This document shows, in pieces, positions 34,212-64,000 of a DNA stretch of 64,000 nt. Origin of the DNA: Acidimicrobiia bacterium. Its GTDB lineage: Bacteria; Actinomycetota; Acidimicrobiia; Spongiisociales; ZC4RG35. The position numbers and the translations under genes are program-made. Numbering within the stretch: position 1 is the first letter of the stretch; every line of letters begins with the position of its first letter. The stretch is taken from assembly GCA_028285585.1 (NCBI GenBank), contig JANQOU010000004.1:20267-84266 (forward strand). The letters run 5' to 3'. The notes under the pieces are model-generated. The model worked only from the letters and a program-made list of their open reading frames with translations, did no database searches and was not told the DNA's origin.

Positions 34212-36354
34212 ATCTGCGACATCGGTCGAACTGGCCGATGTCCTCGATGCTCATCGGGTGCACCACCCGGATGGGGACTTCGAGCTGCTGACTCGTGCTT
34301 TTGACGTCGCGTCGGAGGCGCATGCCGGCCAGACGCGAAAGACCGGCGATCCCTACATCAGCCACCCGCTGACGGTCGCCAAGATGCTGGCCGACTACGG
34401 CCTCGACTCCGAGACCCTGGCAGCTGCCTTTCTGCACGACACCGTGGAAGACACGGACCTGACCCTGCCCCAGCTCGAGAAGAGCTTCGGCACAGGAATT
34501 GCTGCGCTCATCGACGGCGTCACCAAGCTCGATCGGGTCCGGTACTCGAATCGCGAACAAGCTCAGGCCGCGACCATTCGGAAGATGGTGGTAGCGATGG
34601 CCCAGGATGTGCGGGTCCTCATCATCAAGCTGTTCGACCGCCTGCACAACATGCGGACAGTGCATGCCCTCCGCGAGGAGAAGCAGATGAGAGTGGCCCG
34701 TGAGACGCTCGATGTCTACGCACCACTTGCTCACAGGCTCGGCGTGGAGGAGATCAAGCACGAGTTCGAGGATCGTTGCTTCGCAATCCTGTACCCGGGC
34801 CCCAACGCCGAGATCCAGCGCAAGCTCACCGAGGCAGCCCCGGAGCGTGAGGCATTCATCGAGAAGATGGTCACCGAGATCTGGGGGCTGCTCGATGACT
34901 CGTCGATCAAAGCCGAGGTCACGGGCCGGCCCAAGCACCAGTACTCGATCTACCGGAAGATGATGGAGCAGAACAGGCCGTTCGAAGACATTCACGATCT
35001 CATCGGCATCCGGATAATCACGAGCTCGACTCGCGACTGCTACGCGGCTCTCGGGCTGATCCACTCGCATTGGGTCCCGGTGACCGGCAGGTTCAAGGAC
35101 TACATAGCCATGCCCAAGATCAACCTCTACCAGTCGCTTCACACAACAGTGATCGGGCCTGACGGCAAGCCGCTGGAAGTCCAGATTCGGACCGACGAGA
35201 TGCACAACCGAGCGGAAGCGGGGATCGCTGCCCACTGGCGATACAAAGAAGGAGAGGTCACCAGGGGGGCAACGGTGACCTTGGAGGCTCTCGATGAGGA
35301 CCCGGAAGAGTTCCTTGCCAACCTGAAGCTCGACCTCTACCAGGACGAAGTCTTTGTGCTCACCCCGGGTGGCGACGTGAAGGAGATGGCCAAAGGGTCC
35401 ACAGCGGTCGATTTTGCTTACGCCGTGCACACGGAGGTAGGCCATCGTTGCGTGGGTGCACGGGTCAACGGCCGGCTGGTGCCGTTGTCCACCGTCCTGG
35501 AGTCGGGTGACATCGTGGAAGTGCTCACAACCAACTCCGCTGAGGCAGGGCCCAGCAGGGACTGGCTCAAATTCGTCCGGTCGGGCAGGGCCAAGTCGAA
35601 GATCAAGCAGTGGTTCCAGAAGGAGCGACGAGACCAGGCCTTGTCAGAAGGCAAGGACATGATCCAGGCTTTGTTCAAGCGTGAGGCACCTGAGATGCCC
35701 ACGGCGGAACGCGACGAGCACCTCCTCGCGATTGCGGTGGAACTCGGCCAGAAGGACATCGAGACGTTCACGGTGAGCCTCGGTGAGGGCAAGGTGTCGA
35801 TCGACTCGGTAGTGGTGCGGTTGCACAGACGTTTGGAGCCCGACACCGGCGACGACTTGTTCCAGCCTCCGAGACGCCGGCGACCCTACGAGTCAGCCCA
35901 TGTCGTCGTCGAAGGTCAGGACGACATGCTCGTCAACCTGGCCCGTTGCTGCTCCCCGGTGCCGGGGGACCCGATTGTCGGGTATGTCACGATCGGCCGG
36001 GGGGTGTCGGTCCACCGAGCGGACTGCACCAATGTCGCCTCCCTGGCAGACCGCAAGGAACGCGCCGTGGAAGTGACCTGGCCCGATGATCAGGCAGGTG
36101 CTTTCGTCGTTTGGATCCAGGTCGAAGCCCTCGATCGCACCCGGCTGCTCAGAGACGTGACTGCCATGGTCTCGGACACCGGAGGAAACATCACTGCCTC
36201 GTCCACGGCAACCGGAGATGACCGGATCGCGGTGCTCAAATACGAAGTGGAGCTTTCCGACCCGAGCCAGTTGCCGCGTCTGCTTTCGGACCTGAGGGGA
36301 GTGGACGGCGTCTTCTCGGCTTTCCGTCTTGCCAACGATCCTGCGGCTTCCTGA
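34189..36354 (+). CDS. relA: Bifunctional (p)ppGpp synthetase/hydrolase Rel
   Basis: HD motif LHDTVED, RFKDY, YQSLHT, TGS domain, ARCC zinc finger, ACT domain. Confidence 0.96.
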   Translation: MLSSDTTESATSVELADVLDAHRVHHPDGDFELLTRAFDVASEAHAGQTRKTGDPYISHPLTVAKMLADYGLDSETLAAAFLHDTVEDTDLTLPQLEKSFGTGIAALIDGVTKLDRVRYSNREQAQAATIRKMVVAMAQDVRVLIIKLFDRLHNMRTVHALREEKQMRVARETLDVYAPLAHRLGVEEIKHEFEDRCFAILYPGPNAEIQRKLTEAAPEREAFIEKMVTEIWGLLDDSSIKAEVTGRPKHQYSIYRKMMEQNRPFEDIHDLIGIRIITSSTRDCYAALGLIHSHWVPVTGRFKDYIAMPKINLYQSLHTTVIGPDGKPLEVQIRTDEMHNRAEAGIAAHWRYKEGEVTRGATVTLEALDEDPEEFLANLKLDLYQDEVFVLTPGGDVKEMAKGSTAVDFAYAVHTEVGHRCVGARVNGRLVPLSTVLESGDIVEVLTTNSAEAGPSRDWLKFVRSGRAKSKIKQWFQKERRDQALSEGKDMIQALFKREAPEMPTAERDEHLLAIAVELGQKDIETFTVSLGEGKVSIDSVVVRLHRRLEPDTGDDLFQPPRRRRPYESAHVVVEGQDDMLVNLARCCSPVPGDPIVGYVTIGRGVSVHRADCTNVASLADRKERAVEVTWPDDQAGAFVVWIQVEALDRTRLLRDVTAMVSDTGGNITASSTATGDDRIAVLKYEVELSDPSQLPRLLSDLRGVDGVFSAFRLANDPAAS

Positions 36355-58900: not shown

Positions 58901-59143
58901 ATCGGTGAAGGCCCGAGAGACATCGGCGAGCGAGTTGAGAATGGTGAGATCCAGCTGGTCATCAACACCCCTAGGGGTGGGCGCGCCCGATCGGATGGAA
59001 AGACGATTCGTCGGACTGCGCGTCGGCACTTCATACCCTGCGTGACCACCATTCAGGGCGGGCTCGCGGTGGCACGCAGCCTCCGAGCCGGCCCCGGAGC
59101 GATCCACAAGCCGCGAAGTCTTCAGGAATGGCACCGGACTTAG
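55907..59143 (+). CDS. carB: Carbamoyl-phosphate synthase large subunit
   Basis: [20 protein letters not shown] and [10 protein letters not shown]. Confidence 0.98.
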
Positions 59144-60042
59144 CCGTTCAGCTCGGAGATTTGCGGCTGCGCAGCCCGTTGATCGCCGCCTCCGGCACGG
59201 TTGGCTCGGTGTGGGAGTGGGCCGATGTGGCCGACGTTTCTGTCTTTGGGGCAGCTGTCGCCAAGTCGGTAGCGCCCGAGGAATGGCCAGGGCGTCCCCA
59301 GCCCCGCGTGGCGCCGACGGGCACCGGGATGCTCAACGGGATCGGCATCCAGAACCCGGGCATCGCCGCATGGGTCGAGAAGATGAGGCCCGCCATCCCA
59401 ATGCTGGACGTCCCGGTTTGGGGCTCCGCGGTAGCCGGCGACCCGGAAGGTTTCGCCATCGTGGCGAAACAGCTGGTCGAAGCGGGTGTGACGGCGGTAG
59501 AGCTGAATCTCTCTTGCCCAAACTTGGAGGAGGGTCATCTCTTCTCGTTCAGCGACTCGGCGAGTGCTGCTGTCGTCAGTGCCGCACGAGGCGCAGTCAA
59601 TGTGCCGATAGGCGCCAAGTTGTCACCGAACACACCTGAGATCGTCGAGGTTGCCGATGCTTGCCTTCAAGCGGGTGCCGACTTCCTGGTGCTCACCAAC
59701 ACGGCGTTCGGGTTCGGGCTTGATCCTGAGACGTCGAGGCCTTTGCTCAGCGGCGGAGTCGGCGGCTACTCGGGGCCCGGCCTCAAGCCGATCTCACTGC
59801 GTTGCGTCTACGAAGTCGCTCAGGCGCTTCCGGACGCCAAGATCGTCGGGTGTGGCGGCATAAGCAGCGGCAGGGATGTAGTCGAGTACCTGATGGCAGG
59901 CGCATCGGCGGTGGAGATCGGCACTGTCTTGCTCGCCGAGCCAGAGGCGGGAAAGCGGATCTCACGAGAGCTGGATGATGAGCTGAGTCGCCTGGGAGCT
60001 GACTCGGTCTCGGACATCATCCGGAGTGTCGAGTCATGGTGA
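59128..60042 (+). CDS. pyrD: Dihydroorotate dehydrogenase, family 1 catalytic subunit
   Basis: [26 protein letters not shown] and GGYSG. Confidence 0.9.
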
Positions 60043-60740
60043 ACCCAGTACTCGTTGCCCTGGACACACCCGAGCTCGACGAGGCTCGTCGTTTGGCTGA
60101 AGACCTGGTGTCCGTGGTGGGCGGCTTCAAGGTTGGGCTCGAGATGATCATGGCCAACGGCCCCAGTGCCGTATCAGACATCGCCTTGTTGGGTTTGCCG
60201 GTGTTCGCTGATGTGAAGCTGCACGACATCCCCAACACAGTCGAGAAAGCCGCGTCGCAGCTCGCCCGGCGTGGTGCGAGGTGGATCACGGTCCATGCGA
60301 GTGGTGGCGGGAAGATGATCTCGGCAGCTGTGGCTGGCTTGGAGCACGGTGGTGCCGCTCACACAGGAGTCTTGGCGGTGACGGTGCTGACCTCGCTCGA
60401 CCAATCCGACCTCGTCGCGATCGGAGTCGAGCGGTCCGTCGAAGAGCAGGTGGCGGAGTTGGCGCATCTCGCCGGCGAGCAAGGAGCCGAGGGCGTGATC
60501 TGCTCTCCTCGTGAAGTCGGTGTTGTCAAGAGTCATGCGTCGAAGCTGCTCGCTGTCACACCAGGGGTGAGGCTGGACGAAGGTGATAGTCACGATCAGA
60601 AGAGGGTCACCACGCCCGTGGCAGCCATGGAGGCTGGTGCCGACTTGCTGGTGATCGGAAGGCCGATCACGGCCAGTGAGGCACCGGCGGAGTCGGCTGG
60701 TCGCATCGTCGAGTCGCTCCGATTGGGCGGGCACTTCTAA
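60036..60740 (+). CDS. pyrF: Orotidine-5'-phosphate decarboxylase
   Basis: FKVG, DVKLHDIPNT and TPGVR. Confidence 0.96.
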   Translation: MVNPVLVALDTPELDEARRLAEDLVSVVGGFKVGLEMIMANGPSAVSDIALLGLPVFADVKLHDIPNTVEKAASQLARRGARWITVHASGGGKMISAAVAGLEHGGAAHTGVLAVTVLTSLDQSDLVAIGVERSVEEQVAELAHLAGEQGAEGVICSPREVGVVKSHASKLLAVTPGVRLDEGDSHDQKRVTTPVAAMEAGADLLVIGRPITASEAPAESAGRIVESLRLGGHF

Positions 60741-60816: not shown

Positions 60817-61131
60817 ATGGCACAGCCACCACAATTGACAGACGAGCAGCGTCGCCAGGCTCTGGCAAAGGCCGCCGAGGCGCGACGTGTTCGAGCTGAG
60901 ACCAAAGAGCTTCTCAAGACCGGCTCATTGAGTCTCGCCGAGCTGTTTGAGCAGGCCGAGAGCGACGAGCTGATCGCCGGCCTGAAAGTCGAGTCGCTTC
61001 TTGCAGCGATGCCCGGCACAGGCAAGATCAAGGCGAAGCGACTGATGGAGAGCGTCGGAATAGCCGAGAACCGGCGAATCCGCGGACTGGGAGAGAATCA
61101 GAGGGAGACCCTTCTGCAAGAATTCGCCTGA
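60817..61131 (+). CDS. mihF: Actinobacterial integration host factor
   Basis: LTDEQRRQALAKAAEARRVRAE and RRIRGLG. SD GAGGA. Confidence 0.93.
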   Translation: MAQPPQLTDEQRRQALAKAAEARRVRAETKELLKTGSLSLAELFEQAESDELIAGLKVESLLAAMPGTGKIKAKRLMESVGIAENRRIRGLGENQRETLLQEFA

Positions 61132-61676
61132 TGATCGTCACCATCTCGGGGCGGCCGGGCTCCGGGAAGAGCGCGGTGGCAAAGCGGGTAGCCGAAGCGC
61201 TCGATGTTCGTCATGTGTCTGCCGGGGACTTCATGAGAGAGATGGCCGCAGAGCGCGGGTTGTCGATCCTTGAGCTGTCCAGGTCGGCAGAGGGAACCGA
61301 TGCCATCGACCGTGAGATTGACGCTCGCACGGCTCGCCTCGCCGGCGAGGGCGCCAGCTTTGTTATCGACGCGCGACTCGGATGGCACTTTGTCCCTGTG
61401 TCGCTCAAGGTATTCCTCGATGTGTCCCTGGCTGAAGCCACCCGGCGGGTGTTCGACGCCGCCCGCGGGTCCGAGGTGGAGAACGTCGATCTCGCTGCGA
61501 CGAGAGCAGCCATCGAGGAGCGAACCGAGTCAGAGCGAATCCGCTATCTCGACTACTACGACCTCGACTACACCGATCACAGCCACTACGACCTGGTCAT
61601 CGACACTTCGCAGATGACGGTTGATGATGTCGTCGACCGGGTGCTCGCTGGCTTGGGTGCCGTTGAGTCCTTGTAG
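61131..61676 (+). CDS. Archaeal-type (d)CMP kinase family P-loop NMP kinase (COG1102-like) occupying the gmk position
   Basis: ITISG-PGSGKS, SAGDFMREMA, IDREID, DARLG, SERIRY..YY and YDLVIDTS. No Gmk GMP-binding SxTTRxxRxGE motif. Confidence 0.85.
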   Translation: MIVTISGRPGSGKSAVAKRVAEALDVRHVSAGDFMREMAAERGLSILELSRSAEGTDAIDREIDARTARLAGEGASFVIDARLGWHFVPVSLKVFLDVSLAEATRRVFDAARGSEVENVDLAATRAAIEERTESERIRYLDYYDLDYTDHSHYDLVIDTSQMTVDDVVDRVLAGLGAVESL

Positions 61677-61721: not shown

Positions 61722-61943
61722 ATGAAGCTCGAAGACGTCATCGACCAAATAGGCAACCGCTTTGCGACCGTGGTGGTCTCGGCTCGTCGCGCACGCCAGA
61801 TCAACAGCTATTTTCATCAGCTGGGAGTCGGGTACGGCGAGTATGTCCCGCCTCAGGTCCACTCCCTCTCACGCAAGCCTCTGACCATCGCCATGGAGGA
61901 GATTGCCGAAGGCAAAGTCGCGGTCGAGACCGTCGAGGAGTAG
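61722..61943 (+). CDS. rpoZ: RNA polymerase omega subunit
   Basis: ARRARQINSY and KPLTIAMEEI. Confidence 0.92.
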   Translation: MKLEDVIDQIGNRFATVVVSARRARQINSYFHQLGVGYGEYVPPQVHSLSRKPLTIAMEEIAEGKVAVETVEE

Positions 61944-63125
61944 ATGCTCGACGGCCGGCGAGTTTTGCTCGCCGTCACCGGGGGCGTAGCCGCATACAAG
62001 TCGGCTTATCTAGCCAGGCGGCTGATCGAGTCTGGTGCCGAGGTCAAGGTGATCCTGACCGAGTCCGCTCAGGAGTTCATCGGCGCTCAAACTTTCGCCG
62101 CAATCACTGGTGATCGCCCTTACACCAGCCTCTTCTCAGATGAGCGATCAGTTTCGCCACACACCGAGTTGGCGCGCTGGGCACATGTCATCGTCATCGC
62201 ACCGGCGACTGCGGCGACCATAGGCAAAGTCGCCAGCGGCATCTCGTCTGATCTGGTCTCAGCAACCTTGCTGGCTGCGCAACGTCCGGTGCTCGTTGCG
62301 CCGGCAATGCACACTGAGATGTGGGAGCACGCATCAACTCAACGAAACATTGAGCAACTCGAGGCCGACGGCTACGAGATGGTGGGACCGTTCGAGGGGC
62401 CGCTCGCCGGCGGCGATGTCGGTATCGGCCGTGTTGCCGAGCCCGACGAGGTCGTCGCGCGGTTGAAAGAGCTGATGGGCACGCCAGACAACGCGAAGCG
62501 GCTCCTGGTGACCGCAGGTGGCACACGCGAGGCGATCGATCCTGTGCGGTACGTCGGCAACCGATCGAGCGGGAAGATGGGTCACGCCATAGCCAATGAA
62601 GGAGCAGGGCGCGGTATGGCCGTGACCTTGGTGACCACCTCGGATGAGCCAGTGTCTGCCGGGGTGAAAGTGACACGCGTCGAGTCGGCTCAGGAGATGC
62701 TCGAAGCGGTAGCGGCGGTTGAGGCTGACGTAGCGGTGATGGCGGCGGCCGTTGCGGACTTCAAGCCGTCGGACCCGAGCTCGGGCAAGTTGGCGCGCTC
62801 TGACGGATTGGAGTCGATCACATTGGAGCCAACACCTGACATTCTCGCCTCCGTCGTGGCTCGCGATGAGCCTCCGTTCGTTGTTGGCTTTGCGGCTGAG
62901 ACCGGTGGCGTCGAGCGAGCAGTAGCCAAGGCGAAACGGAAGAACGTCGACCTGCTCGTCTACAACGACGTGACGGAGGAAGGCTCCGGGTTTGGGACCG
63001 ACACCAATCGTGTTGTGATCGTTAATCGGGCCGGAGACACGGATGAGTGGCCGATGCTCACCAAACAAGAGGTGGCCGCGGACCTCATCAGCTTGGTTTT
63101 ATCCGAGATCAATCCACAGGGTTAG
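61944..63125 (+). CDS. coaBC: Phosphopantothenoylcysteine decarboxylase/synthetase
   Basis: GGVAAYK, APAMH, TAGGTRE.IDPVRY.GNRSSGKMG and VGFAAET. Confidence 0.96.
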   Translation: MLDGRRVLLAVTGGVAAYKSAYLARRLIESGAEVKVILTESAQEFIGAQTFAAITGDRPYTSLFSDERSVSPHTELARWAHVIVIAPATAATIGKVASGISSDLVSATLLAAQRPVLVAPAMHTEMWEHASTQRNIEQLEADGYEMVGPFEGPLAGGDVGIGRVAEPDEVVARLKELMGTPDNAKRLLVTAGGTREAIDPVRYVGNRSSGKMGHAIANEGAGRGMAVTLVTTSDEPVSAGVKVTRVESAQEMLEAVAAVEADVAVMAAAVADFKPSDPSSGKLARSDGLESITLEPTPDILASVVARDEPPFVVGFAAETGGVERAVAKAKRKNVDLLVYNDVTEEGSGFGTDTNRVVIVNRAGDTDEWPMLTKQEVAADLISLVLSEINPQG

Positions 63126-63137
63126 GCTCGCACCTCG

Positions 63138-64000
63138 ATGAGGAGCTTCTACTTCACGTCCGAGTCAGTCACTGAAGGGCACCCCGACAAGGTGGCAGAC
63201 GCAGTTTCCGATGCCGTGCTCGACGAGGCGCTGCGTGTCGATCCGCACGCTCGCGTCGCCTGTGAGACCTTCGTCACGACGAGGGTTGCGATTGTCGGCG
63301 GAGAGACCTCGGTGGCAGGCGATCTCGACATCGACGCCATCGTCAGGCGCACCGTGCGCGGGATCGGGTACGACGGGTTCGACGACGACTTTGCTGCTGA
63401 CACGATCGAAGTCCAGAACAGAATTCACAGTCAGAGCGCCGACATCGCCGAGGGCGTGGATAGGGAGCTGGGTGCTGGTGACCAAGGTCTCATGTTCGGG
63501 TTCGCAGTCAACGAGACGGACGAAATGATGCCTCTGCCCATCCAGCTGGCCCATCGTCTCGCCGAGCGGCTCAGCGAGGTGCGGAAGACTGGCCAACTCG
63601 ACTACCTACGACCTGATGGGAAGACCCAGGTGATGGTCAAGTACGAAGACTCCAAGCCGGTGGCTGTGGAGAAGGTGCTGATCTCGACCCACCATGCGGA
63701 AGGCCAGGACCAGCTGTCGATGAAAAGCGACATCGAAGAAGCAGTCGTGCGGGCGGTGGTGCCCGAGGAACTGCTCTCGAAGAGACTCGACTTCATCTTC
63801 AACCCGAGCGGCCGCTTCGAGATAGGTGGCCCTGTTGCCGATACCGGTCTCACCGGACGGAAGATCATCGTCGACACCTACGGTGGGTTTGCCCGGCACG
63901 GCGGAGGTGCTTTCTCCGGAAAAGATGCGACGAAGGTCGATAGGTCCGCCGCATACGCGGCGCGCTCGGCGGCGAAGAATCTGGTGGCGGCCGGCGTCGC
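63138..64000 (+). CDS. metK: S-adenosylmethionine synthetase (runs off window end)
   Basis: [23 protein letters not shown] and GGGAFSGKD, read directly from the DNA. Confidence 0.95.

Follow-up and report, generated by a model that had tools for sequence, protein, structure and literature searches.

An archaeal-type cytidylate kinase family member in the guanylate kinase slot of Acidimicrobiia: displacement of gmk in situ and a proposed GMP kinase

The kinase gene and its neighbours

The window analysed here, a stretch of 64,000 nucleotides from an Acidimicrobiia genome, carries towards its downstream end a run of genes in the order pyrF, mihF, kinase, rpoZ, coaBC and metK, in which the kinase start overlaps the mihF stop. 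Both the order and the overlap, first pointed out in an earlier note on this DNA, were confirmed by open reading frame (ORF) coordinates and family scans, and the features are as follows:

59128-60042: pyrD
60036..60740, plus strand: pyrF (PF00215, 174.8 bits)
60817..61131, plus strand: mihF, the actinobacterial integration host factor, which borders the slot upstream (NF041260, 126.1 bits; PF22525)
61129..61133, plus strand: TGATG, the overlap of mihF stop and kinase start, read from the sequence
61131..61676, plus strand: kinase ORF, 181 aa with an ATG start, an archaeal-type (d)CMP-kinase-family NMP kinase and proposed GMP kinase (TIGR02173, PF13189)
61722..61943, plus strand: rpoZ, RNA polymerase omega, which borders the slot downstream (TIGR00690, 55.1 bits; PF01192)
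61944..63125, plus strand: coaBC (PF04127, DFP, 201 bits; PF02441, Flavoprotein, 114.5 bits)
63138..63998, plus strand: metK, with all three S-AdoMet synthetase domains, continuing past the end of the window

The TGA of mihF lies at 61129-61131 and the ATG of the kinase at 61131-61133, and an equally tight junction right after the mihF stop is seen in the upstream sequences of relatives, an arrangement from which translational coupling of mihF and kinase appears probable. In one relative (L024, genome G010), the kinase ORF at position 1501 lacks ATG, GTG and TTG codons around the conserved N-terminus, and its aligned first codon is a CTG located directly after the mihF stop.

The kinase was matched by the model TIGR02173 (cyt_kin_arch, (d)CMP kinase) with 125.4 bits, against a trusted cut-off of 102.1, and by PF13189 (Cytidylate_kin2) with 75.8 bits, against a cut-off of 28, which upholds the archaeal Cmk family signatures that the earlier note had read from the protein. 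It is the only TIGR02173 match over cut-off in its genome. Its score against the canonical cmk model TIGR00017 was 44 bits, below the cut-off of 135.55; PF00625 (Guanylate_kin) was missing from its 13 Pfam matches at E<=0.01, and TIGR03263 from the best 25 of its 35 NCBIfam matches. The statement that the protein lacks the Gmk motifs SxTTR and RxGE is borne out as the lack of a Guanylate_kin HMM match. Homologue searches with the kinase returned close Acidimicrobiia relatives only, named cytidylate kinase, NMP kinase or AAA ATPase in public sources. The (d)CMP kinase function in the name of TIGR02173 is a prediction that is not known to rest on an assay, and we know of no enzymology for any member of this family.

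In the source assembly (2.59 Mb, 14 contigs, 96.85% complete), a profile search gave no PF00625 match at E<=1e-3, and all 10 bacterial control genomes gave a match in the same search. The top TIGR03263 match, of 16.5 bits, lies in a 158-aa ORF that resembles GreA by eye and was rejected as a cryptic gmk. A canonical cmk is present on another contig (210 bits), and the genome also has guaA, encoding GMP synthase; GMP is therefore made and must be phosphorylated. The genome-wide search for both kinases had been proposed beforehand, a canonical gmk elsewhere together with no canonical cmk being named as the outcome against the present reading, and it returned the opposite: gmk absent, canonical cmk present.

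Distribution and slot occupancy of the kinase and gmk

Among 41 genomes of relatives, the kinase was found in 7, gmk in 33, both in none and neither in one genome, which is 55% complete. Across the class Acidimicrobiia (301 genomes), 23 carried the kinase at E<=1e-15 (21 of them over cut-off), 267 carried gmk over cut-off, none carried both and 11 carried neither; one carrier (G264) has a sub-cut-off PF00625 match (E = 3.4e-4). In two of the class genomes with neither gene (G231, G267), and in the corresponding genome of the relatives (G022), rpoZ was also undetected with the window rpoZ as query, which, for a single protein query used with no positive control, suggests that the region is unassembled. 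A phylum sample of 401 genomes gave further carriers in 5 of 10 genomes of family f60 and 2 of 19 of family f59, gmk being found in 0 of these 7. Moreover, a loci search with a 12-sequence alignment, whose 80 loci are skewed to groups c and d of the tree described below and to their archaeal look-alikes, added five named carriers in which gmk is missing: the complete chromosome of Aquihabitans daechungensis DSM 27986, a Nitriliruptorales MAG, two Microthrixaceae assemblies and an Actinomycetota MAG, the last with a kinase identical to that of G438, so that the two may be one genome.

Canonical cmk was over cut-off in 33 of 34 carriers, the exception being a genome 94% complete, and this retention implies that the kinase is not needed as CMP kinase. 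Carriers assembled in a single contig (G092, G178, G264) likewise have no gmk, which rules out assembly gaps as a general explanation. The counts include unpublished genomes, namely the gmk-positive G027 and G038 among the relatives, the gmk-positive G275, G299 and G237 in the class, and the carrier G399. Since the genomes are related, the counts are not independent trials and, taken raw, overstate the number of events; the argument consequently rests on five groups and two phyla.

Mapping of the slot by tblastn with the window's own proteins placed the kinase between mihF and rpoZ-coaBC in 6 of 6 loci of the relatives (the window's own included), in 23 of 23 class loci (three of them shared with the relatives' six) and in 7 of 7 loci of f59 and f60. 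The kinase thus adjoins mihF, ahead of rpoZ, in all 36 loci examined (6 + 23 + 7), rpoZ of L029 lying beyond the fetched stretch. Pfam scans gave a consistent picture for three of the named carriers: mihF adjoins the kinase in Aquihabitans, the Nitriliruptorales MAG and the Actinomycetota MAG, with rpoZ following the kinase in the first and coaBC downstream in the last. In six gmk-bearing relatives, the same mihF-rpoZ interval is filled by gmk. The earlier claim that the kinase sits in the gmk slot next to rpoZ holds, accordingly, for every Actinomycetota carrier locus examined.

The GTDB genus g39 has both states, with gmk in two genomes and the kinase in four. When the gmk loci L139 (G047) and L140 (G069) were compared by blastn with the kinase loci L036, L038, L042 and L044, homology was lost at the end of mihF and came back at the rpoZ start or a few bases ahead of it, so that, as judged from these alignments, the locus comparison is one of a clean cassette swap at the slot. 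The presence of both states in one genus, together with breaks at the slot borders, suggests that the two states are exchanged much like alleles, through recombination in the genes on either side. Family f9 is also divided, with four carriers in which gmk is missing and five gmk genomes in which the kinase is missing. In the carriers (L026, L045, L046, L047; genomes G032, G185, G092, G096), the slot kinase lies on the strand opposite to mihF and rpoZ and has a C-terminal extension of ~70-100 aa, which has no Pfam match and contains a conserved 'V..GH' stretch.

A second phylum provided an independent case. In two Latescibacterota MAGs, neither of which yielded a gmk, the kinase has a YicC-like gene on one side and coaBC on the other. 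In a sample of 101 genomes seeded on a Latescibacterota MAG, 28 had the kinase over cut-off, 68 had gmk, none had both and 5 had neither. All 12 carrier loci fetched show yicC, kinase and coaBC on one strand, and gmk was directly after yicC in the 4 gmk genomes examined, in 3 of which coaBC-UDG follows gmk after a gap of ~300 nt. This gap holds an 80-aa ORF (L153-L155), rpoZ-like by eye and with no Pfam match. In the carrier loci (L141-L152), the kinase abuts coaBC, and the 80-aa ORF seems to have gone from the slot along with gmk. Having different flanks, the gmk slot of this second phylum indicates that the same exchange happened in an unrelated lineage. The phyletic profiles of gmk and kinase, whose comparison the earlier note had called for, are mutually exclusive in the two phyla (0 overlap in 41, 301 and 101 genomes).

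Mutually exclusive profiles and occupancy of the gmk slot together show that gmk was displaced in situ, non-orthologously, by a member of the archaeal-type 'cytidylate kinase' family. In every case of coexistence with gmk that was seen, the kinase copy lies outside the slot. One Pseudomonadota MAG (L132) has both a kinase family member, with an HD-domain gene as neighbour, and gmk. Two Myxococcales MAGs, of which the completeness was not established, have the kinase in unrelated contexts and no gmk was found in them; in L117 its neighbours encode a Sel1-repeat protein and an alginate-export protein, and in L121 glutamate dehydrogenase and an FAD oxidoreductase. In the closed 7-Mb actinobacterial genome G616 (L055, L056), the gmk in the mihF-rpoZ slot is short, its 166 aa matching no more than positions 3-123 of a Guanylate_kin model with 182 positions, and ~5 kb downstream of it stands a gene for a 327-aa protein related to the kinase, which has a long C-terminal extension and a score of 85.9 bits, below the cut-off. 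This genome may represent an intermediate state of the exchange. Furthermore, ESM Atlas look-alikes offer a lead, and only a lead, to relatives in many bacterial phyla and in DPANN archaea.

Phylogeny and archaeal members of the family

A maximum-likelihood tree (LG+C20, midpoint root) was built from 57 sequences, 16 of them archaeal, L048 from an unpublished genome being left out. Four actinobacterial groups, each monophyletic with support of at least 99, were recovered: group a, formed by f1 and f2 and including the window kinase; group b, formed by f9; group c, comprising f41, f45 and f50 with Iamia, Microthrixaceae and Aquihabitans; and group d, comprising f59 and f60 with Nitriliruptorales. 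Groups a and b make up one clade (100/99), and the other clade, with a poorly supported backbone, contains groups c and d, Latescibacterota, Myxococcales/Pseudomonadota and all archaeal sequences. Under the midpoint root, the window kinase falls in the bacterial sister clade. Hence, the description 'archaeal-type' given to it in the earlier note stands at the level of the family, but the window protein itself belongs to a bacterial sister lineage outside the archaeal clade of the tree. Sequences of group c are 41-50% identical to the Thermoplasmatales/Thermoplasmata sequences retrieved. The four actinobacterial groups and the Latescibacterota group point to repeated installation in the slot; judging by the tree topology, at least two separate installations in a gmk slot would be needed, and five probably took place.

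As regards archaea, PF00625 was found in 0 of 4 controls and in 0 of 5 archaeal carriers. In the phylum of a Halobacteriales MAG, it was detected in 2 of 251 genomes, as partial matches of 37 bits, and both genomes also carry the kinase; of 101 genomes from the same phylum, 95 contain the kinase family, with 89 scoring over cut-off. The single archaeal locus examined for context, in a Thermococcus MAG, shows the gene order SecY, AAA_17 kinase, YidC-like gene, L34e, kinase and Cbf5. A 2014 article describes the archaeal guanylate kinase gene as unidentified and conjectures that AK6 acts in its place (PMC4177761), and a table of a preprint lists gmk as 'NL' (no literature support) for three Borrelia species (PMC10370097).

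Proposed GMP kinase activity and comparison with known systems

The AF2 model of the kinase, computed with an 18-sequence alignment, has a pLDDT of 90.9 and a pTM of 0.86, and shows an NMP-kinase fold of five strands with surrounding helices. Its top Foldseek matches in the PDB were 3hdt and 3fdi, two uncharacterised Cytidylate_kin2 proteins, followed by shikimate kinases and canonical CMP kinases with TMq of 0.63-0.78; guanylate kinase was absent among the matches listed. By sequence, no PDB structure of the family was found, the phmmer matches being at P-loop level only (best E 8.7e-6). Across the 57 aligned sequences, the 16 archaeal ones included, seven residues (R36, D60, D64, R82, R106, R131 and R138) never vary, and each of E135, Y139, Y143 and D154 is found in 48 or more. 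The substrate-binding residues therefore appear to be common to the slot-resident bacterial and the archaeal proteins, whatever the substrate. Gmk reads guanine through carboxylates. The kinase sequence holds no positive signature of guanine recognition, and that D60, D64 or E135 might read guanine is put forward here as a suggestion.

From the genomic evidence, we consider it likely, at a probability of about three in four, that this kinase is the GMP kinase of the cell, installed by non-orthologous displacement in situ. The earlier note had proposed both the displacement and the activity, and of these the displacement is established by the loci and profiles described above, while the activity is argued from genomics. 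In the mechanism proposed, a P-loop NMP kinase at the chromosomal position of gmk (mihF-[kinase]-rpoZ-coaBC) would supply the reaction GMP + ATP -> GDP + ADP. Residues 7-14, the Walker A loop GRPGSGKS, would hold ATP, the NMP site would consist of the family-invariant R36, D60, D64 and R82, and LID and phosphate-clamping functions would fall to R106, R131, E135 and R138, in a protein presumably co-translated with mihF through the TGATG overlap.

The main alternative is that the protein is a (d)CMP kinase, as annotated, redundant with Cmk, and that GMP is handled by a broad-specificity adenylate kinase or by an unrecognised protein. The equivalog model TIGR02173 is matched over its cut-off, the nearest characterised folds are the canonical CMP kinases, the names of close relatives include cytidylate kinase, and AK6-type kinases have been guessed to phosphorylate GMP in archaea in the 2014 article cited above. 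This explanation leaves unaccounted for, however, that the gene occurs only where gmk is missing, with 0 overlap in 301 and 101 genomes, that two phyla whose slot neighbours differ both have it in the place of gmk, and that a canonical cmk is kept in nearly all carriers; besides, the function attached to TIGR02173 is itself predicted. We therefore regard it as improbable, at roughly one chance in eight.

A P-loop kinase with another substrate, or with a regulatory role linked to rpoZ and coaBC, could also have entered the slot after an unrelated loss of gmk. Such a reading would fit the uncharacterised state of 3hdt and 3fdi and the shikimate kinases among the structural neighbours, as well as the extension of ~100 aa with no Pfam match in one subgroup. 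Nevertheless, GMP phosphorylation is indispensable where guaA makes GMP, so that gmk cannot simply be lost, and the residues conserved with the archaeal members are the Arg, Asp and Glu set of an NMP kinase, which makes this reading less probable still than a (d)CMP kinase. That a gmk is present and was missed, through an assembly gap or through divergence beyond the reach of the HMM, is very improbable, for the draft state of the source genome is outweighed by a gmk slot that is fully assembled and occupied by the other kinase, by the gmk-less single-contig genomes and complete Aquihabitans chromosome, by the full recovery of gmk in the bacterial controls and by the GreA-like nature of the best sub-threshold match.

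A broader reading is that the whole TIGR02173/COG1102 family is the missing archaeal GMP kinase, perhaps with dual GMP/CMP activity, and that it repeatedly replaced Gmk at the gmk locus in at least two bacterial phyla; this we hold as a tentative proposal, somewhat short of an even chance. Full-text literature searches, with most subscription journals and supplements outside their scope, returned no assignment of GMP kinase to the TIGR02173 family and no report of the displacement, and nothing relevant was found by term in PMC10248530, PMC3261824 and PMC8305020.

The step from GMP to GDP is indispensable on the way to GTP and dGTP, and with a family member in place of gmk in two phyla, nature would in effect have run the complementation experiment many times. 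An old hole in an archaeal pathway would thereby become a question of the enzymology of one protein. If the GMP kinase assignment is true, a systematic mis-annotation (as cytidylate kinase, NMP kinase or AAA ATPase) would be corrected; pathway reconstructions based on names presumably show a spurious GMP-kinase gap in these organisms, including Iamia, Microthrixaceae and Aquihabitans.

Gmk is a target of (p)ppGpp, by which it is inhibited in Actinobacteria and Firmicutes. If the family-wide reading is true, the (p)ppGpp brake on Gmk could also have been removed in Actinomycetota. The replacement of Gmk also raises the question of whether the control of GTP homeostasis has changed in such organisms. 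Elsewhere in the window (~34924-35256; G000:C2:55190-55522), a RelA/SpoT-domain match of 148 bits lies inside a 777-aa open frame, and the organism is presumably able to make (p)ppGpp even though its Gmk is gone.

Compared with known systems, the AK6/Fap7-type kinases resemble the window kinase in being small, P-loop, NMP-kinase-like proteins present in archaea, and Fap7 (4cw7, 4cvn) is among its weaker structural matches; they belong, however, to a different family, and their proposal as archaeal GMP kinase is a conjecture (PMC4177761). Canonical Cmk (TIGR00017, PF02224; 2h92, 1kdo, 3akc) is the nearest characterised fold, with TMq up to 0.78, and shares the P-loop and the Arg of the D-x-R motif according to an alignment to 4e22, whereas the window kinase is ~40 residues shorter. 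In the weak phmmer alignment to that Yersinia Cmk (4e22), the Asp after the motif Arg is unmatched in the kinase, and the invariant D64 of the kinase aligns to a Leu. In Cmk, the Asp after the motif Arg reads cytosine.

The closest likeness in sequence is to the archaeal-type cytidylate kinases (TIGR02173/PF13189), shared through a score over the trusted cut-off and a length of ~175-185 aa. In all 16 archaeal sequences, R36, D60, D64, R82, R106, R131, R138, Y139 and Y143 are identical to the window kinase, and the agreement is partial at E135 (13 of 16) and D154 (14 of 16). The window protein differs from the archaeal members in its Walker A motif (GSGKS versus GSGTT), in a one-residue difference of register after R82 and in its context, which is a bacterial gmk slot; in addition, it coexists with a canonical Cmk, unlike the situation in the four archaeal controls, which have no cmk over cut-off. 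From Gmk (PF00625/TIGR03263), it is set apart by having no detectable sequence membership, and yet it shares with Gmk the same slot, a mutually exclusive distribution, a similar size and the character of a P-loop NMP kinase.
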